Shown: positions 1 through 52,770 of the stretch, piece by piece
Numbering within the stretch: the stretch's first letter is position 1
Layout: each line of letters begins with the position of its first letter
NCBI GenBank assembly: GCA_965226585.1
Contig: OZ245366.1
Coordinates: 1,088,001 to 1,152,000 of the forward strand
Reading direction: 5' to 3'
Source: Thermodesulfobacteriota bacterium
GTDB lineage: Bacteria; Desulfobacterota_D; UBA1144; Nemesobacterales; Mycalebacteriaceae
Length of the DNA stretch: 64,000 bases
Position numbers and translations under genes: made by a program
Notes under the pieces: generated by a model
Database searches by the model: none
The model's input: only the letters and a program-made list of their open reading frames with translations
Told to the model about the DNA's origin: nothing

Positions 1-331
1 AGTCGCGTCATCACTGCCGTGGGCAATGGCGTTTCCAAACGGACAGCCGCCCGTTGATTTCACCGTTCACCCAACCCAGATATACGAAACGCTTCTGATG
101 CTTGCCGTGTTCGCCGTGCTGTGGAGATTGCGGAAAAAACCCGCGCCGGACGGATGGATGTTCGCCCTCTACCTTGTGCTTGCCGGAACGGAACGGTTTT
201 TCATTGAGTTTTTGCGCACAACAACACAAAGCCCGATTCCGGGGCTTTCAGTCGCCCAGCTGGTCGCCCTCACCCTTATCGTGTGGGGTGGGCTGTGGCT
301 GTTCAGGTTCAAACGGTTACGGAACCCGTGA
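1..331 (+). CDS. lgt: Prolipoprotein diacylglyceryl transferase, C-terminal part (truncated by window start)
   Basis: HPTQIYE and RFFIEFLR motifs with hydrophobic helices. Confidence 0.9.
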   Translation, partial: VASSLPWAMAFPNGQPPVDFTVHPTQIYETLLMLAVFAVLWRLRKKPAPDGWMFALYLVLAGTERFFIEFLRTTTQSPIPGLSVAQLVALTLIVWGGLWLFRFKRLRNP

Positions 332-1402: not shown

Positions 1403-2709
1403 CAGGCGCCCCGCTTTTTCTCTCCGCCCCTTCGCGTTGTAACGGAAAGAGCATGAGCGGTAAGCCCTTCCGAGCGGGCGAGATTTATCACCGTGTCCGC
1501 GAGTTTGTCAAAACCCTTCGCGGTGAGCTCCGCCGTGCTTGGAGTTTTGACAAAATCGGAAGCCGAGAGCGGAGACGAAAACCTCGCCGCCCCTCCGGTC
1601 GGAAGCACGTGGCTTGAGCCGCAAACATAGTCGCCAAAAGGCTCTGTCGAGCGGCTTCCGAGAAACACCGCGCCCGCGTGCCGTATCAGCGGCAGAAGAG
1701 AACGCGGCGATTTTACGCAGAGTTCAAGGTGCTCCGGGGCAACCGCGTTTGAAATCCGCACGGCTTGTTTCAGGCTTGAGGTGATAAATATTTTTCCTCT
1801 GCTCTTTATTGAGGCAGCCGCTATTTTGCTTCTCTCAATCCCGCGCGCCATCTCCATCAGTTCATCTTTCACTTGCCGGGCATAGGATGCGGATGTGACG
1901 GCAAGGGTTGGGGTCGCCATCTCGTCGTGTTCCGCCTGAGCGAGCAGGTCTGAAGCCACCCACTGTGCCGGGCATGAGCCGTCCGCTATCACAAAAACCT
2001 CGCTGGGTCCCGCCATCATGTCTATGTCAACTTCTCCGTAGACCAGTTTTTTCGCTATCGTTACGTATATGTTTCCGGGTCCCACAATTTTGTCGGCGCG
2101 GGGAACGGACTTTGTTCCGAACGCCAGAGCGGCAACCGCCTGCGCGCCGCCGATTTTGAAAATGCGGTCAACCCTCGCGACTGACGCGGCGGCAATCACT
2201 TCGGGATTCAGACGCCCTCCGGGGCACGGAGTTGTCATAACGGTTTCGCGCACACCGGCAACCTTTGCCGGAACCGCCGTCATAAGAACGGTTGACGGAT
2301 ACGCGGCTTTTCCTCCGGGAATGTAGATGCCCACCCTGTCAAGCGGACGGACAAGCCAGCCCAGCCGGTTGCCGTAGGCGTCTCTGTGCTCCGCCGCGCG
2401 GGGCATTTTTTTTCTCTGATAATCCTCTATGCGGCGGCGCGCGGTTTTCAGGTCTTTCATCACGCCCTTCGGCACTTTTGCCATCGCGGCTTTCGCCTCG
2501 GAACCTGAAACCTCAACCGTGCGCGCGGAAATTGAGGCGCGGTCAAACTTTTTCGTGAGAGAAAAAAGCGCGGAATCTCCCTTTTTTCTCACCTGCTCAA
2601 CAATTGCCGCCGTTGCCGCCACTGTTTCAGGGTCGAAAGGCGAAGCGGTTTTGTGTATGCGGGCAATCTCTCTGTCTATGTTCGCTGAGTTTATTTTGAC
2701 GGTTTTCAT
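1402..2709 (-). CDS. hisD: Histidinol dehydrogenase
   Basis: GIYIPGGKAAYPS, KIVGPGNIYV, DMMAGPSE, QAEHD, APEHLE; start placed at MKTVKIN. Confidence 0.95.
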   Translation of the reverse strand: MKTVKINSANIDREIARIHKTASPFDPETVAATAAIVEQVRKKGDSALFSLTKKFDRASISARTVEVSGSEAKAAMAKVPKGVMKDLKTARRRIEDYQRKKMPRAAEHRDAYGNRLGWLVRPLDRVGIYIPGGKAAYPSTVLMTAVPAKVAGVRETVMTTPCPGGRLNPEVIAAASVARVDRIFKIGGAQAVAALAFGTKSVPRADKIVGPGNIYVTIAKKLVYGEVDIDMMAGPSEVFVIADGSCPAQWVASDLLAQAEHDEMATPTLAVTSASYARQVKDELMEMARGIERSKIAAASIKSRGKIFITSSLKQAVRISNAVAPEHLELCVKSPRSLLPLIRHAGAVFLGSRSTEPFGDYVCGSSHVLPTGGAARFSSPLSASDFVKTPSTAELTAKGFDKLADTVINLARSEGLTAHALSVTTRRGGEKKRGA

Positions 2710-39759: not shown

Positions 39760-39835
<76 letters not shown>

Positions 39836-39862
39836 AAAAACCGGTGTCAATCTTTCCTCTAA

Positions 39863-39935
39863 TGGAGGTGAGCGGGCTCGAACCGCCGACCTCCGGCTTG
39901 CAAAGCCGGCGCTCTCCCAACTGAGCTACACCCCC
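39863..39935 (-). tRNA. tRNA-Ala(TGC)
   Basis: Reverse complement GGGGGTGTAGCTCAG...CCGGC-TTTGCAA-GCCGG. Confidence 0.95.
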
Positions 39936-39987
39936 TTTAAGAAAAGTGAAAATATTCACTCTCCCTGTAATTCCAAACCATTTTCAA

Positions 39988-40062
<75 letters not shown>

Positions 40063-40536: not shown

Positions 40537-42180
40537 TCAGGGATTTTGTTTGAAGCGCGAGGAAAGAATTTTCACTATCTCCGTCAGGCGGCTTTTAGCC
40601 GCGTAAATTGAATAGGAATAGACATGTCCGACTGGCGCGTAATTTTTCAGAAAAAAGGATTCGAAATCGTCTCTGAAAATCCGGTGAGAGGAAGGAAACA
40701 CTGATTCCATGGAAAACATCTCACCCTCTTTGTGGGCAAGGAGAAAAACATCAACTTTTTGCGATTCAAGAGCGGCAATCTGAACGGACATATAAGTTTC
40801 ATTCCAATCCTTGACGGGCTCCATCATAAAGTGGGGAAAATGCGAAAGCGCCCGCCCGTTTGGATAAATAAACGGTTGCCCCGCAATGTAGAGAGTATAG
40901 AGCGAAGAGTCGCTCGGCATGACTTCAACAACAAGCCCGTTAAGTAATTGTGATGTTTTCTTCATGTTTTTTTCAAAACTGTTCCAATACGTCCTTTCAC
41001 CAATAAATCGACCTCTCTGGTGCAGGGAAGTCTGCAAATAAGAAGGAGTGTCGTGAAAGGAAAAACATAAAGAGAGCGCCGAGGCGAAAATCCAGCCGCC
41101 GCAAATAAAAGCCGCGCGTTTCCCGATTCCCGCCAGAACCGCCCTCTGTCCGGCAAGAACCATAAGAGGCGGCATCATATAAAAAATATGATCATTTCCG
41201 CTTCCCCAGTCAGTTGCGGGACCTAAAAGAATAAACACGAAAGCAAAAGTCATGAGGGTTGCCGAAATAAAAACGGGTTTTTCCCGCCTTTCCCTTATTG
41301 CTCCGATAAGAACCGCAAGAACAACGGTTCCGCCAATCAGCGACCACGGAAGATGATTCCAGGATTTAACGCGGGTTCCCGAAAAAGCCTCAATCACTGC
41401 AAAGTACGCCTCAAGTGAAAAAGAGGGATGAAGGAAAGATACAAGAGCGAAAACAATGGAAAAACCCGCCGCTCCGGCAATCCAGAGAGTTCCGCGCTCA
41501 TAAATAACAAGGGGAATCAGCGCCATAACCCCTATCGCGCCGTGAGGTTTGCCAATGGCGCACATTGCGAGACCAAGCCCCGCCAAAAGCATTGAGACGG
41601 CGGAATTGCGTATTGAAAAAGCCGCAAACAGGGAAAGAGATATGCCGAACAAAAGAGACGCCTCTTTGAGTTCAAACCGGAGCGGAATCTGGAATAAAAT
41701 CAGGGCAAAAAGGCACAAAATTGCCGCAATGCCGGCGTTTGTTCCGAAACGCCTGAGGAATAAAATTGACATTAAAGCAATAAATCCCCAGAACATCAGA
41801 AGAGACGCCACGCCGTCTGCGGTAAACGGATTGTCAAAAAAAGGAATGAAAGCCGCGCCAATCAGAAAACTGTAAGGCCCGTACACCATCAGTTGCATAT
41901 CCCCCTGCGGTGAAGAAAAGAAAACCGGCTTCATCGCCGCAACTGCCTGAGAAAGCAGTGTTACGCTTGAGGGAGTGTGGTTGAGCCGGGTGGGAAATAT
42001 GGCATACCTTACGCTGTAATCAAGCATCCATATGGCGCAAACCGCAATCGCGATTATGGAAACAGTCCGGAAATTGTCAGATAAAAAACGCGGGAAAGAG
42101 TTTCGCGGGTCTGAGCGGAAAAGAAACCAGACACCCATAAAAAATGTAAAAACTGTAATCCAGACAAGCGACTGAGCCAT
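40537..42180 (-). CDS. Polytopic membrane protein (possible GT-C-type glycosyltransferase)
   Basis: Many hydrophobic segments, YGP motif in an early loop, soluble C-terminal domain; functional call is inference. Confidence 0.6.
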   Translation of the reverse strand: MAQSLVWITVFTFFMGVWFLFRSDPRNSFPRFLSDNFRTVSIIAIAVCAIWMLDYSVRYAIFPTRLNHTPSSVTLLSQAVAAMKPVFFSSPQGDMQLMVYGPYSFLIGAAFIPFFDNPFTADGVASLLMFWGFIALMSILFLRRFGTNAGIAAILCLFALILFQIPLRFELKEASLLFGISLSLFAAFSIRNSAVSMLLAGLGLAMCAIGKPHGAIGVMALIPLVIYERGTLWIAGAAGFSIVFALVSFLHPSFSLEAYFAVIEAFSGTRVKSWNHLPWSLIGGTVVLAVLIGAIRERREKPVFISATLMTFAFVFILLGPATDWGSGNDHIFYMMPPLMVLAGQRAVLAGIGKRAAFICGGWIFASALSLCFSFHDTPSYLQTSLHQRGRFIGERTYWNSFEKNMKKTSQLLNGLVVEVMPSDSSLYTLYIAGQPFIYPNGRALSHFPHFMMEPVKDWNETYMSVQIAALESQKVDVFLLAHKEGEMFSMESVFPSSHRIFRDDFESFFLKNYAPVGHVYSYSIYAAKSRLTEIVKILSSRFKQNP

Positions 42181-42182
42181 TC

Positions 42183-43694
42183 TCAACTCTCCCTGCGGGG
42201 TACGTAACGCTCGCCTGAAACTGAACTCGCAATCCGTGAGCCGCCCGAAGCGGATTCGCTGTATTCCGTGTCCTGATGCATAAGTTCCCACGGGTTTGCG
42301 GACTCGCCTGAAATAATTCCGTTAACGGTCAAAAGCGCGGTCATCATTGAGTGATCCTGATTGTTATAGAGGTGAAGACCGTTTCTGCCGACAGGATAAA
42401 AGCCCGGCGCTTTTTTCTCAAGCTCATCCCTTATTTTGCTGACGTGCAGTTTGTAATCGCCGTCATATACCGGATACGCCTTTGGCTGACGGACAACACA
42501 GCCGTCAATAATGTCTTCGGGGCGCAGAAGGCCGGTTTCAACAATTTCGCGTTTTGCGGTTTCAATAATTTCGTGGTCTGGCATGTTCCAGGTTCCGTCC
42601 CCTTCAAAGCAGAAATACTCAAGTCCCCAGCAATTTGTTCCGGGAACCGGCACAAGTTCGGGAGACCATGCGCGGTAGTTTTGCATACGGACAAAACTCA
42701 CGTTCGGGTCGTGAACATAGACCCAGTGGTCGGGCAGAATTTCGCGGTTTTCACGGAAAATCAGGGCGCAGATCAGGTAGTCGCGGTATTTGAGCGAGTT
42801 TGCCGAAGCGGTGGAATCAAGGGCGGGTTTGATAAGCGGCACTGTTTTGCCAAGCGGGGCGGAACAGATAATATTTTTTGAGATTATCTGCCCCCCCCCA
42901 GTCTGATTTTGCCCGCCTTCGCCATTTGCGGAGGTGTAAGTTGTATGCCACATTCCGTCTTTGAGTTCATATCCCTCCGCGCGGCGGCCCATAAGAATTT
43001 CCCCGCTCTCCATGGAGTTTATTTTCTCAGCCATTTTCTCCCACATCATTCCCGGACCCTTTCGCGGATAGCGGAATGTGTTCTGCAGGCTGGTTTGCGA
43101 GTTGCCGGACACAATATTTTTCAGCATTTCCAACACTGAGAACGGTTTTATGCGCTGAGACGCCCAGTCCCGGGAAATATCGCGACAGTCCATTCCCCAA
43201 ACTTTTTCGGTGTAGGTTTTGAAGAAGATTTCAAAAAAGCGTCTTCCGAACGCCCTCACAACCCATTCTTCAAAATTTTCGGGCTCTTTGCGGGAAAAGG
43301 ACAAACGCTCTTTCAAGTACGAAAGCGCGCAAAGCAATGACTCGCGAAGACCCAGTTTTGACAGAGCGTCAAAGGGGCTGAACGGATAGTTGAAAAAATG
43401 CCCTCTGTACAGAATTCTGCTCATTCGCGAGCAGGTGAGCATGTCGTCCGGGAGTATGTCGCTCCAGATATCCTCGGCTTCCTTCCATTTTGAAAAGAAT
43501 CGGTGTCCGCCGATGTCCAGCAGGTAGCCCTTGTATCTGTGGGAGCGTGAGATGCCTCCCACATAAACGGGGTCGGATTCAAGAACTACGCAGGAGAGAC
43601 CTTTTTTGAGCAGTAAATAAGCGGCCGTCAGCCCTGCGGGACCGCCGCCGACAATGCACACATCCACGTTTTTTGTCTGAGTTGAATCTCCCAT
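42183..43694 (-). CDS. FAD/NAD(P)-dependent oxidoreductase (HemY/UDP-galactopyranose mutase-like superfamily)
   Basis: GGGPAG dinucleotide motif, DIGGHRFFSK, YTEKVWG, AYPVYD, GRNGLHLYNNQDHSM. Confidence 0.85.
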   Translation of the reverse strand: MGDSTQTKNVDVCIVGGGPAGLTAAYLLLKKGLSCVVLESDPVYVGGISRSHRYKGYLLDIGGHRFFSKWKEAEDIWSDILPDDMLTCSRMSRILYRGHFFNYPFSPFDALSKLGLRESLLCALSYLKERLSFSRKEPENFEEWVVRAFGRRFFEIFFKTYTEKVWGMDCRDISRDWASQRIKPFSVLEMLKNIVSGNSQTSLQNTFRYPRKGPGMMWEKMAEKINSMESGEILMGRRAEGYELKDGMWHTTYTSANGEGGQNQTGGGQIISKNIICSAPLGKTVPLIKPALDSTASANSLKYRDYLICALIFRENREILPDHWVYVHDPNVSFVRMQNYRAWSPELVPVPGTNCWGLEYFCFEGDGTWNMPDHEIIETAKREIVETGLLRPEDIIDGCVVRQPKAYPVYDGDYKLHVSKIRDELEKKAPGFYPVGRNGLHLYNNQDHSMMTALLTVNGIISGESANPWELMHQDTEYSESASGGSRIASSVSGERYVPRRES

Positions 43695-43849
43695 GGCAGA
43701 AATATGAAGATGTAGTATAACAAACCTGCGGGGCGGGGAAAGTGCGGCTCCACAAGAGAGAAAAAATTGCGCGCGCAAGGGGGCGGCGCAGAAAATTGAA
43801 AAACGGATAACCCCTTGTATAATCAGGGCCTAAACGCATCATTTCCGTT

Positions 43850-44788
43850 ATGCCTTCAACTCAAATATCACGCGCCCGGGGCTGTCTGCTGGGACAACTG
43901 GCGGGAGATTCTCTTGGCAGTCTTGTTGAGTTCAGTTCTGCCGAAGAGATTGGAGGGCTTTATCCCGGCGGGGTGCGAAAACTCGCAGACGGCGGTTACT
44001 GGAACACAATTGCGGGACAGCCCACCGATGATTCTGAAATGGCTCTCGCGCTTGCGCGTTCGCTTGTGGATCTGGGGCGTTATGACGCAAAAGCCGTAAA
44101 GGCGGCGTATGTTGACTGGCTGGCGTCTGACCCGTTTGACGTTGGAAATACGGTTCGCGGGGGGCTTATTGGAGAACATAAACCGGACAGTCAGGCAAAC
44201 GGCGCGTTGATGAGAATCAGCCCTTTGGGAATTTTCGGGGTCAATTACACCGTCAGTGAGGTTGCCGAATGGGCGCGGCGGGACGCAGAGATCACGCATA
44301 TTCATAAGATATGCGCGCAATGCAACGACCTTTTCGCAACGGCAATCGCTTATTCCATAAAAAACTGTTGTAACGGCGGGGAGTTATACGAAAGCATAAA
44401 AAAGCGTGCCGGAGAAATTGACGCGGAACCGCAACTGTTGGACATCATAGCAAGAGCCGCCACTCAAAAGCCCAGTGACTACATGAAAACGCGGGGCTGG
44501 GTTTTAATCGCGTTTCAAAATGCCCTTTGGCAGTTGCTACACGCGCCGAACTTTGAGGAAGGCGTGGTTGACACCGTAATGCGCGGCGGCGACACGGACA
44601 CAAACGCCGCCATTTGCGGGGCTCTGCTTGGCTCTGTGTATGGAGAGGGTGCGATTCCCGAACAGTGGAAGAAATGCCTGAAAAACTGCCGCCCTTCTCA
44701 CGACAACCTGAAAGCGGAAAATCCCAGACCGGAATGCTACTGGCCCTGCGATGCGGTGGAACTTGCTGAGAAGTTGCTGGGGGTTTAG
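43850..44788 (+). CDS. ADP-ribosylglycohydrolase (DraG/ARH family)
   Basis: GDSLG, PTDDSEM, NGALMRISP, ITH, GGDTDTNAAICGALLG. Confidence 0.92.
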   Translation: MPSTQISRARGCLLGQLAGDSLGSLVEFSSAEEIGGLYPGGVRKLADGGYWNTIAGQPTDDSEMALALARSLVDLGRYDAKAVKAAYVDWLASDPFDVGNTVRGGLIGEHKPDSQANGALMRISPLGIFGVNYTVSEVAEWARRDAEITHIHKICAQCNDLFATAIAYSIKNCCNGGELYESIKKRAGEIDAEPQLLDIIARAATQKPSDYMKTRGWVLIAFQNALWQLLHAPNFEEGVVDTVMRGGDTDTNAAICGALLGSVYGEGAIPEQWKKCLKNCRPSHDNLKAENPRPECYWPCDAVELAEKLLGV

Positions 44789-44823
44789 AGGCGGCGCGTC
44801 CAGTGGTAAAACGTTGCAGCAAA

Positions 44824-44852
44824 TTGACGTTTTAGTGTCATAACGCTATGAT
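44824..44852 (+). promoter_or_regulatory. Sigma70-type promoter of the antitoxin-RelE operon with overlapping inverted repeat
   Basis: TTGACG-17 nt-TATGAT; TCATA-ACGC-TATGA overlaps the -10. Confidence 0.65.
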
Positions 44853-44869
44853 GTCATCGGGAGAAAAAA

Positions 44870-45109
44870 ATGGCAAAAAACATGGAAACAAGACGCACTA
44901 CCATCTACCTTGAGTCTGAGCTTGCGCGTCAGCTCCGTCTGATAGCCGCAGAAAACGACACATCGGTCTCGGCAGTAGTAAATGATTTTTTGAAAAATTG
45001 TCTTGAAGAAGATGCCGCAGACTACGCTGTAGTTAAACAGCGCGAAAACGAACCCGCTGTTCCGTTTGAAAAAGTCGTAAAAGACCTGAAGAAACGTGGA
45101 AAGTTATAA
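44870..45109 (+). CDS. CopG/ribbon-helix-helix antitoxin
   Basis: RTTIYL...LRLIAAE...SVSAVVN...EDAAD...[14 protein letters not shown]; overlaps a RelE-like ORF. Confidence 0.8.
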
Positions 45110-45398
45110 AATCGAATTAAGGAAGAGCGCGGTAAAAGAACTTGAGTCGCTTTCCAATGGCAAAACGAGGAGACAGGTGGCGGCAAGAATACAGTCTCTG
45201 TTGACTAATCCAAAATCCGCCCGTGGTGTGGAGAAACTTTCTGAAACCAACAAATTCAAGGATTGCTACAAAATAAGGCAGGGAAATTATAGGGTTGTTT
45301 ATACGGTTGATGACGAGAAGAAACTGGTTGTGATAGAGAGAATAAGGCACAGGAAAGACGCATTTGGGGAGCGATTAACTAAGGGATTGAGCAAAAAG
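45096..45398 (+). CDS. RelE/ParE family toxin; no stop codon, reads in frame into the downstream ATPase
   Basis: [37 protein letters not shown]. Confidence 0.8.
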
Positions 45399-45970
45399 AT
45401 GAACAATCAGCCGGTTTGCACAATTATAGCGGGGCCTAACGGCGCGGGGAAAACCACTTTTGCTATGGAGTTTCTGCCGCAGACAAATTGCGGAATTTTT
45501 CTGAACGCCGACATGATAGCCACAGCGCTTTCGCCGCTCGGGGAAAGTGAGAAACAACTGCTGAAAGCGGGGAAACTCTTCCTGCAAGAGGTTGAGGATT
45601 GTATTGAGAAAAGAGAGAACTTTGCTTTTGAAACAACCCTTTCCGGCAAGGCGCATTTGGGAGGGTTCACCGTATGCTGGCTGACGGCTGGCGCGTGAAT
45701 ATGATTTATTTGTGGATACCGAGTGCCGAGACTTCGCTAAACCGCGTCCGCGAGCGCGTCCGGCAAGGCGGGCATAATGTGCCGGAGAAGGATATACGCA
45801 GACGATATGGAAGAACTTTGCGGAACTTGTTTGAATATGCGGCGGTTTGCAGTGAGTTTGAGTGCATTGACAGTTCCAAAAGAGAGAAAAAACTCATCTT
45901 TAGGCAGAAGGGAGAAAGTGTTACAGTATTGAATCAGGAGTTATACAATAGACTGAAACGTGAGGCTAAG
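45399..45970 (+). pseudogene. Zeta-toxin-like P-loop kinase/ATPase split by a frameshift near 45660
   Basis: [24 protein letters not shown] in one frame; RVRERVRQGGHNVP..IRRRY in the -1 frame. Confidence 0.75.
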
Positions 45971-46216
45971 ATGAAAGAAACGAAAGCGAAAGAGAGCGCA
46001 AGGAAATACGAGGCGGATATGGGCAAGCCTGCAAAAGGCGCAAAACGCCATATAGGAGATGTTGACACAGAGTTTATTCTCGATTGCTGGGAGCGCGCGG
46101 TTTCCAAGGAACTGGAACGCAAACGCAAACTCGGCTATGACGCGATTATTGTTGAAGATAACATCATAATGAAGTTGCACCCGGATGGGAGTAAAACGGA
46201 GATTGGGCGGGTTTAA
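45971..46216 (+). CDS. Small protein (probable partner of the zeta-like ATPase), in frame with the ATPase C-terminus
   Basis: GAGG then ATG at 45971; AVSKELERKRKLG..IIVED..IMKLHPDG. Confidence 0.55.
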   Translation: MKETKAKESARKYEADMGKPAKGAKRHIGDVDTEFILDCWERAVSKELERKRKLGYDAIIVEDNIIMKLHPDGSKTEIGRV

Positions 46217-46340
46217 TTAAAAGGGGTTTTCCCGCAGACTGCGAAATTACGATGAACAAAGAGAAGCGCGTGGGAGTGTTTGATATTACACCTCAATGTA
46301 TTTGTACAAGTACAAAAATGACAGGTAGGAACGCCACAAA

Positions 46341-47468
46341 TTGGGTGCTTTTCAAGAAAACAAAAGATTCATTATTGTAAGTCTTATATCCGTAGTGGGG
46401 GTACTGTGTTTTATAGGGTATCTCCAGTGGGAATACGAGGAAAAGAAAGAAATTGAGATGTCCAGAACAGTTATGGACACACGTTATTTTTATTATTACA
46501 CCGAACTTGAGTTAATTCTGAAACAGTTCAAAGAGAATATATCAAAGGATAATGCTTTTTCTTTGATGGAACAATCTGTCAGTACCAGTAAAGACAAATT
46601 CACTAATGACATCAAGCAAATTGCACAAGAACTCCCAATAACCAGATCAAATAACTATTGCGACAGCAACGAATTTTACATATCCGTAAAACAGGCACAG
46701 GCACAGAAAGCACTTGAGGAATCGTTGTCCAGAGCTTACCAGACAATAGAGGATAGGATGACCACCACGCAGAAAGCTCAATATCTGGCAGAGGAAACTT
46801 GGGAAGGGTTTATTCTGAACTGCAAAAATCCTTACAGCAAAACAGCACGCAAGGCTTGTACCGTGGGCGGAGCAATGCGTCACACGGCTTTGGCAATGGG
46901 TGCTGGATATTTGACCCTCAAAACCGGAGGGATTGGCGGAGGATTAGTGTTCAGATTGGCACTATCCTCTCTGATTAGCGAGATAACACACAATTGGATT
47001 GAGGATGAATTTGCCAGTTCAGAATTCAAGTTGGCAATACAAAAGGAGTCGACACTCCACTTTACTACTAATCTGGTGGCGAGTATTTTTGCTGGTGGTA
47101 TGAACGCGAAAAAAATCAAAGACATGGTTTCCCTTATAAAAGGGTATGAATTTTCACACGCAATACCAGCAAGGACTTTCAACAAAATCGGTATTGAAGG
47201 AAGAAAAGGTCTGGCAAATTCAATCTGGAATGGTAATTTTGTCCCACAATTTTTTCACGGAGCAACTGATCCATTTGCCTACCATGCTCGTTTCGAGACT
47301 GGGGCAAAACTTTACCCCTCGGCGATAAGAATGCTGGGGCGTACTCCGGTAAGTTGGCACAATGCAATATCTACATCATTGGTCGATGGAGTTCCGGTTG
47401 CGATAGACAGCTTTGGACGCGCCGTAGCAGATAAATGCCACGAGCAAAAAATAGAACGCATTAACTGA
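46341..47468 (+). CDS. Membrane-anchored hypothetical protein with a possible toxin-like C-terminal domain
   Basis: N-terminal transmembrane helix, Gly/Ala-rich hydrophobic segment, EFSHAIP...SIWNGNFV...HGATDP; AT-rich. Confidence 0.6.
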   Translation: MGAFQENKRFIIVSLISVVGVLCFIGYLQWEYEEKKEIEMSRTVMDTRYFYYYTELELILKQFKENISKDNAFSLMEQSVSTSKDKFTNDIKQIAQELPITRSNNYCDSNEFYISVKQAQAQKALEESLSRAYQTIEDRMTTTQKAQYLAEETWEGFILNCKNPYSKTARKACTVGGAMRHTALAMGAGYLTLKTGGIGGGLVFRLALSSLISEITHNWIEDEFASSEFKLAIQKESTLHFTTNLVASIFAGGMNAKKIKDMVSLIKGYEFSHAIPARTFNKIGIEGRKGLANSIWNGNFVPQFFHGATDPFAYHARFETGAKLYPSAIRMLGRTPVSWHNAISTSLVDGVPVAIDSFGRAVADKCHEQKIERIN

Positions 47469-48114
47469 GTTCAGCGTACCTTTCAGCAATATTGACGATA
47501 CTTTCCTTAAACTCCGCAATCCTTTCAGGGTGTCTTGGTCCCCTGCGAGTTCCAGATTCTGGACGCTTCATGATGTATGAGTAATGTTGAATCTTCTCAG
47601 TGGCGGGAACTTGAAGCCCAAGAGACTCCATGTATTTCAAAATTCTGTCGGCTTGACCGCCAACAGCAATAAGGACTTTTGGCTTGCCAAAGTCAATTTG
47701 ACTCTGAAGAACAGGCATCCAAATCTCAGATTGACTTTTCCAGTATTGAGAATCACTACTCTTCTTCCGGTTTCTTTCTCCCACCACCTCAGGCTCTTTT
47801 ATCACATTTGTCATGTAGCACTTCCATCCCTCGTTTAGTGCTGGATTGCCGCTTTTGAGATTCGCTTCAGCAATTGCATCACGGAACAACTTGCATTCAT
47901 CGGCTCCATAATCCCACTGCAAGTTTTCTGTTTTTTCCGAATACCTGCTATCAACCTCTTTCACGGCATTGAGACTGGGATTTTCCGCAACAAACCACAC
48001 GGGCGAATTCACATCACCCAAACAACTGGTCAACCAGGGAAAATCGTTGAGCCAATTATATAAACCGTTGTCTTTTACAGTCATTCGAATAGAAGTCAGG
48101 GTATCCATAAACAA
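47461..48114 (-). CDS. Uracil-DNA glycosylase superfamily protein
   Basis: VWFVAENPS, YMTNVIK, KPKVLIAVGGQA, IQHYSY correspond to UDG-like motifs. Confidence 0.7.
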   Translation of the reverse strand: MFMDTLTSIRMTVKDNGLYNWLNDFPWLTSCLGDVNSPVWFVAENPSLNAVKEVDSRYSEKTENLQWDYGADECKLFRDAIAEANLKSGNPALNEGWKCYMTNVIKEPEVVGERNRKKSSDSQYWKSQSEIWMPVLQSQIDFGKPKVLIAVGGQADRILKYMESLGLQVPATEKIQHYSYIMKRPESGTRRGPRHPERIAEFKESIVNIAERYAELS

Positions 48115-48129
48115 AAACCCCTCACAACC

Positions 48130-48444
48130 TCACTCCGAACCCACTTGAATATCAATCCCTTCTCTTTTATGCAGGGATGCAAGGAGTGTGGAAATGTTAT
48201 TCAAACTCGGATTGCCGGAGGAACTGAGCATTCTCATTAGGCTTTCAGGTTTCTTGTCGGTCAGTTTTGCCAATCCCTTGAATCCAATGGTGGCGTTTAC
48301 ATAGTCGCGTAACAAACTTTTCGCGACATCCGCTTCGCCCATTGCAAGGCATTTTACCGCCTCATGGAGAAGCCCGACCCTGAACTCCGGGTCTCTTTGT
48401 GCTCTCGCTTTGACTGTTTCAGCAAAATCACGCGTCAATGCCAT
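48130..48444 (-). CDS. HTH antitoxin of an addiction module
   Basis: MALTRDF.ETV.AR..RDPEF...LRDYVNATIGF...KSLMRML-like segment and GNP. Confidence 0.85.
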   Translation of the reverse strand: MALTRDFAETVKARAQRDPEFRVGLLHEAVKCLAMGEADVAKSLLRDYVNATIGFKGLAKLTDKKPESLMRMLSSSGNPSLNNISTLLASLHKREGIDIQVGSE

Positions 48445-48794
48445 AGCGCTTCACCTTCTTTTTTTCTTGATTTGTATTCCATCCAAAGACCTTTGGCTTT
48501 CTCAATATCGCGACTCTGAGATTTTTTGGTTCCACCGCCAAGCAAAACAACCAGCTTGTCACCGTCTCTTCCAAAATAGACACGGTATCCGGGACCAATA
48601 TTCACCCGATATTCACTAACGCCCTGCCCCACTGACTTCACATTTGAAAAATTCCCTTGTTTCATACGGGCAACCACAGCATCAATCCTCAAAGCCGCCT
48701 GAACATCAAGACCGTCAAACCACTTACCAAAAGGACTGTTACCGTCTTTCCGCTCATACTCAACAACTTTAATCTCGCCCGTCGATACTAACAT
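48435..48794 (-). CDS. RelE/ParE-fold addiction module killer protein
   Basis: SPFGKWF, GNFSNVKSVGQGVSEYR, GPGYRVYFG, LLGGGTKKSQSRDIEKAK. Confidence 0.9.
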   Translation of the reverse strand: MLVSTGEIKVVEYERKDGNSPFGKWFDGLDVQAALRIDAVVARMKQGNFSNVKSVGQGVSEYRVNIGPGYRVYFGRDGDKLVVLLGGGTKKSQSRDIEKAKGLWMEYKSRKKEGEALWH

Positions 48795-48812
48795 ATATGT
48801 TACACGAACTCA

Positions 48813-48851
48813 AAAATCCATTCTTCCAAAACTGAAAAGCACAAAGACAGA
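48813..48851. repeat. 39-bp direct repeat, copy 1 (duplicate of the 16S trailer stem arm)
   Basis: AAAATCCATTCTTCCAAAACTGAAAAGCACAAAGACAGA, identical to 50952-50990. Confidence 0.95.
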
Positions 48852-48881
48852 TGAACAATCTACAGTTCACCTATCTTCTGG

Positions 48882-49901
48882 CTACCCTTTTAACCATTTG
48901 TTAAGTCTATCTTCACCATCTGGAGGTGGCAAAATTGATTCTACTTCAGCATTAGGCCAAATCTTTCTGGCTCCAGACTGTACTTGATTGGGATTCACAT
49001 CCACAACCAACACTTGCTGAATATCACGGCCATTACTTTGAAGGTGGTCGAGAAAACACCGATCATAAGCGTTGAAAGCAAAACCAAAGACAATCATATG
49101 TGAAGTTTCTTTTAAGATTTGAGCAGATAATTCCCATTCATACTTGAGAGTGTCTGGCGGTTTCTTGTATTGTGTGGGAGGAACAATAAGTGGCTTCCTC
49201 CTAGTAATAGTAAGCTTGCAGTCAGTATATTTTGTACCATATTCGTCCCAAGACAAACTTCCATGAACTTTGGCTATGGAGATGTTTCCTCCTAGTTTCA
49301 CTGGGTTCTTATTGCTATTTGCAGCAGGATAAGGGCCACGCCCCTTCAAAGGTTCTCCGTATTTTCCATAGTTAAACAACTTTGTACCCAATGCATATTC
49401 TATTAAAGTATCGTAATTAGTAGTGATAATACCATTCCCGCGAGGGTTAGAGTTCAGGATAAATTGCCGAGCAGTCTGGATTCCGGATACTTGAAATTTT
49501 CTCTCTTCATCAAACATTAAAACACGCCTGTTAATACGTCTCTGATACCCTCCCTCTTTCCAGATACAATTATCCACAAGCCTTCTTTGTAAGTACCAAA
49601 CGAGGGCATTTGTCACTATTTCGTTCTTGTTAGCAGAGGAAAATACATACTCTATAAATTGCTCGGCATTAGCCCTATGTTGTTTTTCCTTGTCCCAACC
49701 TTCTTTAAAAGATTTCAGTATTTGAGATTTTCTTTCTTCATCACGCGTATCAAGTTCCATTTGAAAGTCAAACAACTCAGACGCGACAGGCAACCCCGCC
49801 GCCCACTTTGAAAAACCTGCCCCTAGAAGCAATCCGACCATATTCTTACTCTTCCGTTCAACCGTACTAGTTTCCGGAAACAGCAGGCTAGTTTGGCTCA
49901 A
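48882..49901 (-). CDS. SIR2-like domain protein
   Basis: LLLGAGFS, IITTNYDTLIE, KVHGSLSW, IVPPT..K, VFGFAF..YD; AT-rich. Confidence 0.85.
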   Translation of the reverse strand: MSQTSLLFPETSTVERKSKNMVGLLLGAGFSKWAAGLPVASELFDFQMELDTRDEERKSQILKSFKEGWDKEKQHRANAEQFIEYVFSSANKNEIVTNALVWYLQRRLVDNCIWKEGGYQRRINRRVLMFDEERKFQVSGIQTARQFILNSNPRGNGIITTNYDTLIEYALGTKLFNYGKYGEPLKGRGPYPAANSNKNPVKLGGNISIAKVHGSLSWDEYGTKYTDCKLTITRRKPLIVPPTQYKKPPDTLKYEWELSAQILKETSHMIVFGFAFNAYDRCFLDHLQSNGRDIQQVLVVDVNPNQVQSGARKIWPNAEVESILPPPDGEDRLNKWLKG

Positions 49902-50881
49902 GATACACCCTCCAACATCCTCTTTATATCCTTAATAGTCCACCTCTCCCCTTGCAACTTGCGTATCTTCTTCACCCTTTTCGCGGAATCTGCGGCATAT
50001 ATCTGATAACCGGATTTTGTAACCTCCGCCGGTTTCAATAAGCCCTCTTTTGTCCAATGGCGTATTGTGGGAACCGTTTCACCCGTTTGAGCGGCGAGTT
50101 CGCCTATTTTCAGCAGTTTTCCGGGCTTTTTCGGTGTGCCGGACTTGCCTTTTGCCGCATTCAGCAAAGTATCAAGCGAACGGTCTGCGGCTTTGAATAT
50201 CAACTTTTCATAACTGTTCTTTGAACCGCCGAGTTGCGCCTCTTCCAAAGCGCCGATGTATGCCGCGCGGTCACGTTTGCGAACTATCGCCGGGGGATAG
50301 CCGTTTTTGAGCAAAATCAGGGTCATAAGCAAACGCGCCGTTCTGCCGTTGCCGTCCACAAACGGATGGATTGTTACCAAACGGTAATGAGCCTCGGATG
50401 CCAGAGCAACGGGATGAAGTGATTTTTCCGCTCTCAGCCACTTGAAAAAATCTCTCATCAAATCCGGCACTTTTCGCGGATTTGGCAACACAACCGGAGA
50501 ACCGGCAATTCTGACAGGCACACTTCTGTAAATCCCTGCATTTAAGTCGTCAATCCCCTTCATTATCATCCTGTGAATACTGAGAACATCCTTCTCCCCT
50601 GCTCGCGAGTTTCCACTTTCCGCCCGCTTTGCAACCCAGTCCACAGCGCGGGCGTGGTTTGTCGCCTCCAAATGCTCAACCAGACTCTTTCCGCCAATGG
50701 TCAGCCCTTTTTCAACAACCATGGCGGTTTCGCGCCGCGTGAGAGTATTGCCCTCAATCGCGTTGCTGTTATAAGTCAACTCCACACGGAACCAATCTCT
50801 GAGATTGTCCGAAAGCCCCGCCGACAAAGGACGAAACTTGTCCAGCAAGTTCTTCTTTCCTGTCAACTCATCAAACTTCAT
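49898..50881 (-). CDS. Fic family protein with C-terminal MerR-type HTH
   Basis: SNAIEGN inhibitory motif, HPFVDGNGRTAR Fic motif, LKIGELAAQTGETVPTIRHWTKEGLL...SGYQIY. Confidence 0.92.
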   Translation of the reverse strand: MKFDELTGKKNLLDKFRPLSAGLSDNLRDWFRVELTYNSNAIEGNTLTRRETAMVVEKGLTIGGKSLVEHLEATNHARAVDWVAKRAESGNSRAGEKDVLSIHRMIMKGIDDLNAGIYRSVPVRIAGSPVVLPNPRKVPDLMRDFFKWLRAEKSLHPVALASEAHYRLVTIHPFVDGNGRTARLLMTLILLKNGYPPAIVRKRDRAAYIGALEEAQLGGSKNSYEKLIFKAADRSLDTLLNAAKGKSGTPKKPGKLLKIGELAAQTGETVPTIRHWTKEGLLKPAEVTKSGYQIYAADSAKRVKKIRKLQGERWTIKDIKRMLEGVS

Positions 50882-50884
50882 AGC

Positions 50885-50917
50885 GTAAAGTGTAAAGTAT
50901 CACCTTACGCTTTACAA
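50885..50917 (-). promoter_or_regulatory. Putative leaderless promoter of fic overlapped by an inverted repeat
   Basis: Minus strand TTGTAA-17 nt-TACACT-7 nt-ATG; arms GTAAAGCGTAA / TTACACTTTAC (one mismatch). Confidence 0.55.
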
Positions 50918-50951
50918 ACAGATATGACTAACCGATGGAAACCTAAACGGG

Positions 50952-50990
50952 AAAATCCATTCTTCCAAAACTGAAAAGCACAAAGACAGA
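50952..50990. repeat. 39-bp direct repeat, copy 2; 3' arm of the 16S processing stem
   Basis: Identical to 48813-48851; complementary on the transcript to the leader at 52674-52704. Confidence 0.95.
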
Positions 50991-51075: not shown

Positions 51076-52635
<1,560 letters not shown>

Positions 52636-52673: not shown

Positions 52674-52704
52674 CTGTCTATGTGCTATTCAGTTTTCAAA
52701 GAAC
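52674..52704 (-). promoter_or_regulatory. rRNA leader: boxA-like sequence and 5' arm of the 16S processing stem
   Basis: Minus strand GTTCTTTGAAAACTGAATAGCACATAGACAG pairs with trailer CTGTCTTTGTGCTTTTCAGTTTTGGAAGAAT. Confidence 0.8.
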
Positions 52705-52741: not shown

Positions 52742-52770
52742 ACTCTAATGAGGCGGAATGAGCTTGTCAA
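52742..52770 (-). promoter_or_regulatory. rRNA promoter
   Basis: TTGACA-17 nt-TAGAGT upstream of the 16S leader. Confidence 0.75.

Follow-up and report, generated by a model that had tools for sequence, protein, structure and literature searches.

A doubled 16S rRNA processing arm around two accessory genes in a Thermodesulfobacteriota genome, and its possible origin by recombination anchored in the 16S gene

RESULTS

The 3′ arm of the 16S rRNA processing stem occurs twice and encloses two genes

We analyzed a stretch of 64,000 nucleotides (hereafter, the window) from a Thermodesulfobacteriota bacterium (GenBank assembly GCA_965226585.1, contig OZ245366.1, positions 1,088,001 to 1,152,000 of the forward strand), whose genome, called G000 here, is a single contig of 1,484,247 bp and was compared with those of five congeners (G001 to G005). 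The bacterium probably belongs to "Candidatus Dadabacteria," possibly to the genus "Candidatus Mycalebacterium." The window carries a 16S rRNA gene on the minus strand, followed in transcript direction by a 39-bp sequence, the 3′ arm of the 16S processing stem, which is present in two copies with a fic-merR fusion gene and a SIR2-like gene between them. In transcript order, the locus consists of the following features:

52742 to 52770, minus strand: sigma-70-like promoter of the stand-alone 16S gene (TTGACA-17-TAGAGT), a consensus match only (10/12), with TTGACA at the same place in 6/6 genomes
52674 to 52703, minus strand: 5′ (leader) arm of the 16S processing stem, 87% complementary to both copies of the 3′ arm; duplex with the proximal arm, −47.2 kcal/mol
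51076 to 52635, minus strand: 16S rRNA gene, single copy, unlinked from the 23S gene, ∼95% identity across the five congeners; putative homology anchor
50952 to 50990, minus strand: proximal 39-bp 3′ arm, the working processing arm by repeat match and leader pairing; putative donor-side copy
50883 to 50910, minus strand: palindrome just before the fic start codon, a hairpin in the fold, with a similar element before the G005 homologue; likely the gene's own operator or promoter
49898 to 50881, minus strand: fic-merR fusion, 327 aa, GC 0.50, with an intact Fic motif HPFVDGNGRTAR (Fic PF02661, E 6e-24; MerR-HTH PF13411)
48882 to 49901, minus strand: SIR2_2-family gene, 339 aa from TTG (319 aa in the database call), GC 0.41 (PF13289, E 1e-7)
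48843 to 48878, minus strand: 14-bp terminator-like hairpin after the sir2 stop (fold z −5.7), whose 3′ arm extends over nine initial bases of the distal repeat; a candidate for the microhomology of the joint
48813 to 48851, minus strand: distal 39-bp arm, from the repeat match and the comparison with G002 and the other congeners probably the displaced original

The two arms are identical at 39/39 positions with a spacing of 2139 bp, which confirms the statement of a preliminary description of this DNA that an exact 39-bp repeat brackets exactly two genes, both of which have domain matches. In a scan of the whole genome, no other copy was found at up to 12 mismatches, the next matches having 13 mismatches and one of these being the leader arm. 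Among the 44 two-copy repeats of G000, the arm is the sole isolated exact pair of such length that lies wholly outside open reading frames. The start of the repeat falls within a short tandem run of GTCT, and its proximal copy begins 87 nt past the 16S tail. Over 30 nt it is 87% complementary to the 16S leader (52674 to 52703), within which lies what we take to be a boxA-like motif; the repeat is thus the trailer arm that pairs with the leader, as the preliminary description had proposed, and its further view that the processing stem was kept intact across the insertion is also supported.

The suggestion that the leader could pair with either arm fared less well. The duplex with the distal arm is predicted to be weaker than that with the proximal arm (−42.2 versus −47.2 kcal/mol in G000; −31.7 versus −49.9 in G002, where the arm is also doubled), the proximal arm is transcribed before the distal one, and the 14-bp hairpin ties up the first 9 nt of the distal copy. 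In our reading, both changes in the distal copy of G002 break leader pairs, so that the distal arm looks unmaintained.

The duplication is real and recurrent in the genus

Contigs assembled independently from three sequencing runs end exactly at the repeat (43000 to 48842 and 48813 to 50981 in runs X1 and X2) and contain the joints between flank and repeat, repeat and cargo, and cargo and repeat, so these joints are present in the reads. One could still imagine that the assembler fused, through the 39-mer that they share, sequences of two strain haplotypes or of a chromosome and a free circle, as short contigs ending at the repeat do not separate an integrated copy from an empty site plus a circle, the lack of an empty-site or circle joint among the joints listed is uninformative, and the three runs come from one sample that is possibly the source of the assembly. 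Yet the genome is one 1.48-Mb contig, the joints recur in the independent assembly at even depth, and the same layout, with one copy decayed, recurs in a second species, where it could not be the work of an assembler; we regard an artifact as the least probable of the explanations considered here. In run X3, one contig of low depth (2.8 of 9.5) carries four substitutions at 50932 to 50946, where a linker joins the proximal arm to fic; they may represent a minor strain allele of this junction or an error.

The second species is G002, in which the arm is doubled at +83..113 and +2169..2199 (29/31 identical; unit, 2086 bp). Its order is arm, a UvrD-like gene of 667 aa, the decayed arm, and a deleted remnant of fic-merR; the last base of the UvrD-like gene's stop codon is also the first base of the distal arm. 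The other four of the five congeners lack the duplication; no further arm copies were found in G000, G001, G003, G004 (where only 2.4 kb of contig is left), or G005. A third, degenerate copy in G002 (∼+2442) was considered and rejected (profile E 0.33, not significant). In G005, a single arm is followed by a 13-mer and then by a gene of the uracil-DNA glycosylase (UDG) superfamily, and this arrangement has a counterpart behind the distal arm of G000:

48803 to 48815, minus strand: 13-mer leaving the distal copy, with a 12/13 match to the sequence directly after the single G005 arm; probably the older junction
48130 to 48794, minus strand: RelE/ParE-type toxin and putative antitoxin, older downstream content (TIGR02683 above cut-off), with homologues at another duplicated gene end in G002
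47461 to 48114, minus strand: UDG-superfamily gene, with a homologue (66%) directly behind the arm in G005

Sites of the 13-mer type number seven in the whole G000 genome. Since the distal copy runs into this G005-like 13-mer and then into the toxin-antitoxin (TA) pair and the UDG gene, G000 carries in tandem an arm-fic and an arm-UDG arrangement, each of which is seen singly elsewhere. In both doubled loci an older neighbor stands behind the distal copy, that is, the 13-mer and UDG gene in G000 and the fic-merR remnant in G002, which suggests that the newest genes lie nearest the 16S gene and that the distal copy is the displaced original.

These arrangements bear on the idea that slippage at the GTCT run duplicated the trailer locally and that cargo later replaced the DNA between the copies. 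The start of the repeat in that run fits such slippage, and a codon test on other repeats (see below) is compatible with duplication in place, but both neighbor arrangements preexist in other species, the copies are still identical despite a foreign-looking gene (GC 0.41) between them, and two rare steps would be required at each of many loci, which together make slippage very improbable.

The claim that accessory genes stack at the arm stands: all six genomes differ right after it, and stacking is real because G002 independently doubles the same arm, starting at most 1 bp from the corresponding point, around a helicase gene that is unrelated, and keeps the remnant of the older fic-merR behind it. 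The TA and UDG genes are not themselves bounded by a third copy; a profile scan of the 11 kb up to tRNA-Ile finds two only. A metagenome scan for more strains gave one match, likely the same organism as G003, although the two were not compared base by base.

Similar scars lie at the ends of protein genes

In G000, seven of the 44 rows of two-copy direct repeats represent five loci with an intact gene end, an insert, and an orphan end; the other 37, judged by eye, are paralogues or intragenic repeats. The scars at protein genes in G000 are the following:

tyrS end, 56 bp: insert, a DUF488 pair
serS end, 159 bp: insert, a methyltransferase block, absent in G002 (335 bp instead of 3758)
438-aa gene end, 47 bp: DUF3800
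112-aa gene end, 116 bp: tRNA-Ser region

Scars of the same type occur in congeners. Within 393 kb of G002, seven of ten repeat rows are of this kind, and the remaining three are paralogues. Five of the seven lie at ends of genes that have orthologues in G000, among them folD, gdhA, a radC-like gene, and the gene for heme o synthase; the other two are an hsdR-like piece and the start of an accessory gene. Two of the seven inserts either contain no gene or consist of shared genes. G002 also has the 5′ portion of an rsmD-like gene in duplicate around the same TA pair that lies in the G000 region (the rsmD and hsdR labels were given by eye). In G005, the tyrS end is doubled around other cargo, with an edge ∼18 nt from that of G000, and in G003, an amidohydrolase end is doubled around a Fic gene. 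Comparing intact with orphan coding copies, 49/107 differences are synonymous (pN/pS 0.35), which leans toward two coding alleles.

Relative to the orphan tyrS end, the DUF488 pair lies in front in G000 but behind in G005, which gives another clear example of stacking order. The repeat list of G000 is otherwise dominated by palindromic REP/dRS3-like repeats and repetitive autotransporter genes (C1:29000-64000 and 1351000-1372000).

Recombination enzymes and the question of an attachment site

Neither the cassette nor the region holds an integrase, in line with the preliminary description, which had seen no integrase or transposase in the window. G000 has two tyrosine recombinases, both full-length and of the Xer type (XerC/XerD) with housekeeping neighbors; each congener has two as well, and G001 has a third, an integron integrase. 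No match to PF00239 (resolvase) or PF02371 (IS110 transposase) was found in G000, nor to PF07508 (large serine recombinase) in any of the six genomes, and no integrase lies near the arm site in 6/6. The single HUH gene of G000 (PF01797) is 255 kb away and was not linked to the site. An integron origin finds no support, as G000 has no IntI and the repeat is an rRNA arm that pairs with the leader, not an attC site. By eye, the repeat is also without the symmetric 11-6-11 layout of a dif-like site (the genome's own dif was not located). The integron of G001 lies elsewhere, downstream of tyrS (L064:6965-18450), with an integrase (TIGR02249 above cut-off), attC-like repeats, and a cassette array.

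The proposal that the arm is a dedicated attachment site is thus unsupported, because the same scar occurs at many protein gene ends with movable edges and no integrase beyond those of the XerC/XerD type was found in G000. In a stricter form of this proposal, a phage or helper supplies in trans a site-specific recombinase for which the arm serves as a true attB, and the copies are attL and attR of minimal islands without an integrase. Its merits are geometric: two species share the 5′ edge of the repeat to within 1 bp, whereas the 3′ extent of the repeat varies (39 bp in G000, 31 bp in G002), as at tRNA-type attachment sites, and both distal joints have inverted symmetry (a 14-bp stem in G000, a 12-bp palindrome in G002). 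Yet that symmetry has its center beyond the repeat, and not at the same place for the two copies; integrases would be required separately for a dozen gene ends that are unrelated to one another; and the one extra tyrosine recombinase of the genus belongs to the distant integron. Matches of the arm to viral contigs were absent in two scans, in which the phages of this host may be unrepresented and plasmids were not searched. Taken with the profile results above, this leaves a recombinase acting in trans improbable.

Genes for DNA uptake and homologous recombination are present. ComEC is encoded in 6/6 genomes (split in G002), and G000 also has DprA, a ComM-type ATPase (TIGR00368), and RecA. The split comEC of G002, the congener with the most insertion scars, lies in two frames at C1:162074-162909 and may reflect an assembly error or a recent loss.

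A recombination scar anchored in the 16S gene as the probable origin of the repeat

Homology-facilitated illegitimate recombination joins foreign DNA through a homologous anchor on one side and a microhomology on the other, as described in the consulted parts of PMC2884548 and PMC4437187. We read the 39-bp repeat as the scar of such an event with the 16S gene as the anchor, at a probability of about 0.6. The 16S gene and leader are ∼95% identical over 1.74 kb in 5/5 congeners and offer a long homologous anchor. DNA of a close relative would enter the cell, probably by natural transformation, and pair through the conserved 16S gene, presumably with the help of RecA; it would bring in the relative's arm together with fic-merR and sir2 and be rejoined at the start of the resident arm via a short microhomology. 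Under this assignment of donor and recipient, each event would place the newest genes nearest the 16S gene and regenerate the arm. The distal copy, once formed, could act as a second short homology, through which host recombination may spread the unit or delete it. The reading builds on the observed repeat and its identity as a stem arm, two older arrangements in relatives, the G002 event, the scars at protein gene ends, and the host genes for recombination and uptake.

A candidate for the microhomology is seen at the far joint. The 14-bp hairpin begins 4 nt past the sir2 stop, and when 1262 post-stop 30-mers were folded together with the repeat start, three were as stable, of which only that of sir2 pairs all nine first bases. 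In the simplest reading, the terminator of the cargo supplied this 9-bp candidate microhomology, the alternative being that selection shaped a terminator after the insertion. A cargo stop codon lies inside the repeat at serS (G000), at tyrS (G005), and at the arm (G002), which is what joints formed within donor DNA would give.

Several observations weigh against this origin. Competence genes do not prove competence, and G000 is 94.6% complete by markers. There were no scars in 400 kb of G005 (four rows, all paralogues), and a further 395 kb of G002 yielded three rows, of which none was at a core gene end; the scans covered ∼0.8 of 1.4 Mb in G002 and <0.5 of 1.5 Mb in G005, in separate 20-kb pieces. 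The codon test is compatible with duplication in place as well, where ∼0.5 would also be expected, and leaves out transition bias. The donor sequence or an empty allele from the species of G000 was not found, so that the microhomology is a candidate only. Finally, the arm repeats of G000 and G002 agree in their 5′ edge to within 1 bp, for which we estimate a chance of ∼3 in 100 with random joints over a 100-nt trailer (n = 2); this agreement at a short GTCT run is the main observation that our reading accounts for least well, and it keeps the attachment-site explanation alive.

Another route to the same end product is circulation, in which the cassette loops out between the 39-bp copies as an arm-bearing circle and reenters the arm of another cell by a single crossover of host recombination, so that cassettes circulate and stack; the preliminary description had foreseen such circles. 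The exact 39-bp identity, which includes species-specific bases, the closeness in size of the two arm-bounded units (2139 and 2086 bp), and the uptake and RecA genes favor it. Contig depth of the cassette, a rough measure, resembles that of its flanks (14.2 versus 13.9 and 12.5 in X1; 17.4 versus 23.4 and 17.9 in X2), which argues against an abundant circle. Moreover, a homology of 39 bp is short for RecA recombination, and circulation leaves the first joint unexplained. A threshold of 30 bp for RecA recombination is cited in the section of PMC2884548 on this point. We judge circulation unlikely, though less so than any other alternative.

In a bolder reading, the 3′ arm of the unlinked 16S gene would be favored as an entry point, either through its sequence or through breaks linked to rRNA transcription and processing, and host recombination would add promoter-poor cassettes there, behind the strongest promoter of the cell, while regenerating the stem each time; such an integrase-free, rRNA-anchored system is a doubtful proposition at present.

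Transcription and function of the cargo

Both cargo genes lie on the same strand as the 16S gene. Read-through from the rRNA promoter into the cargo, as proposed in the preliminary description, is plausible because no terminator-like site was found between 16S and fic and the first gene behind the arm is co-oriented with the 16S gene in 5/6 genomes. The fic-merR gene probably has its own promoter as well, since the palindrome upstream of it also occurs in G005, where a 70% identical homologue lies 32 kb from the 16S gene. Predicted promoters and terminators in the region are not in excess of those in shuffled sequences (7 versus 6.5 and 10 versus 7.1, respectively).

The closest database relatives of the SIR2-like gene are 53% identical; no homologue was found in the five congeners, and the search for a close DNA-level donor gave none, with one distant match (33% over 96 aa). 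No partner of SIR2 anti-phage systems (TIR, HerA, or pAgo, as in Thoeris, SIR2-HerA, and short pAgo-SIR2) stands beside it, its neighbors being fic-merR and the TA pair, and PADLOC SIR2 models match it only partially (best E, 1e-13). A defense role of the cassette genes is a guess from domain matches.

The separated 16S gene and its former spacer

In G000, the 23S gene lies at C1:745172, 390 kb from the 16S gene, and it is not found behind the 16S gene in any of the five congeners. In other families of the order, tRNA-Ile, tRNA-Ala, and 23S follow within ≤1.5 kb of 16S in 23/24 loci, the remaining locus being without a 16S end. The former spacer tRNAs mark the far limit of the variable region:

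39760 to 40062, minus strand: tRNA-Ile(GAT), tRNA-Ala(TGC), and tRNA-Ala(GGC)

The distance from 16S to tRNA-Ile is 1011, 1490, 7440, and 11015 bp in the four of the six genomes where both lie together; the G004 contig ends early, and G005 has no tRNA-Ile within the 17 kb read. Conservation of the trailer extends as far as the arm does, and beyond this point all six genomes differ. Content of the variable stretch comes from a shared pool (UDG, zeta-like kinase, exonuclease, RHH antitoxin, and a 115- to 122-aa open reading frame [ORF]) and from private genes. These data suggest that the DNA behind the arm became free to change because the 16S gene lost its link to 23S.

Some features of this region stand on their own. 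At 45096 to 46216, the frame of a ParE-like toxin runs into the N-terminal part of a zeta-like kinase, with the remainder in another frame; the kinase looks fused and frameshifted, since G002 and G005 carry it as a single 273-aa ORF. At 40537 to 43778, within the opened spacer, a flavin-dependent oxidoreductase and a 584-aa membrane protein without a Pfam match are private to G000. The spacer tRNAs themselves vary, with three tRNA-Ala genes in 151-bp tandem units in G003 and a dehydrogenase gene between tRNA-Ile and tRNA-Ala in G002.

Behind the 23S gene of G000 (C1:745172-748700) lies a processing arm of its own, after which come species-variable genes. Doubling of the 23S trailer arm was not found in any of the six genomes. 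Downstream of 23S, G002 has several repeats of 50 to 105 bp; no 5S-like stretch was seen by eye right behind 23S, where no dedicated search was made.

DISCUSSION

If the proposed origin is correct, the breakup of an rRNA operon has turned the most conserved gene of the genome into an anchor for gene gain. The old spacer has filled with toxin-antitoxin, SIR2, helicase, and nuclease genes in genomes of 1.2 to 1.6 Mb that have almost no mobile-element enzymes. As the site is easily amplified from the 16S end, it could serve as a field test of how often homology-facilitated capture occurs, and of how its joints cluster, in uncultured bacteria. Should the joints prove fixed, the locus would represent a new kind of cassette system.

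Integrase-driven islands at the 3′ ends of tRNA, tmRNA, and other genes restore the target end, leave the displaced end as a direct repeat, and stack in tandem with the newest island nearest the target. The 16S locus shares the restored end, the displaced direct repeat, and the newest-nearest order with these islands but differs from them in that there is no cognate integrase, the edges at tyrS move, and the target is an rRNA trailer. Narrow word searches of the open-access literature found no published description of a doubled rRNA processing arm, which does not imply its absence from print.

A parallel in position comes from "Candidatus Heimdallarchaeum," in which different mobile elements occupy one site, that of HeimM2 and HeimV2, with the sole 16S gene on one side and a tRNA gene on the other (Wu et al. 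2022, PMC8813620). Varied insertions between a lone 16S gene and a tRNA gene are thus common to both cases, although the archaeal elements measure 8 to 44 kb and carry homing-endonuclease-like or viral and transposon genes, and the relevant sections of that report describe no doubled processing arm. A 16S gene unlinked from 23S is common among symbionts according to the excerpts of PMC7761764, so the genus shares a separated 16S gene in a small genome with them; those excerpts do not treat the opened spacer as a region of gene capture.

In its proposed mechanism, the arrangement resembles the effector-immunity arrays of the type VI secretion system (T6SS) in Vibrio cholerae, for which sequential displacement has been proposed (Kirchberger et al. 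2017, PMC5361080). As far as the consulted parts of that report and of the studies of homology-facilitated recombination describe them, these cases have in common with ours a conserved upstream anchor, a new module in first place, older genes shifted downstream, and no integrase. Compared to the Vibrio arrays, the locus described here is distinct in that a single-copy rRNA gene serves as the anchor, a noncoding RNA-processing arm is what has been displaced, and two events fall at nearly the same joint.

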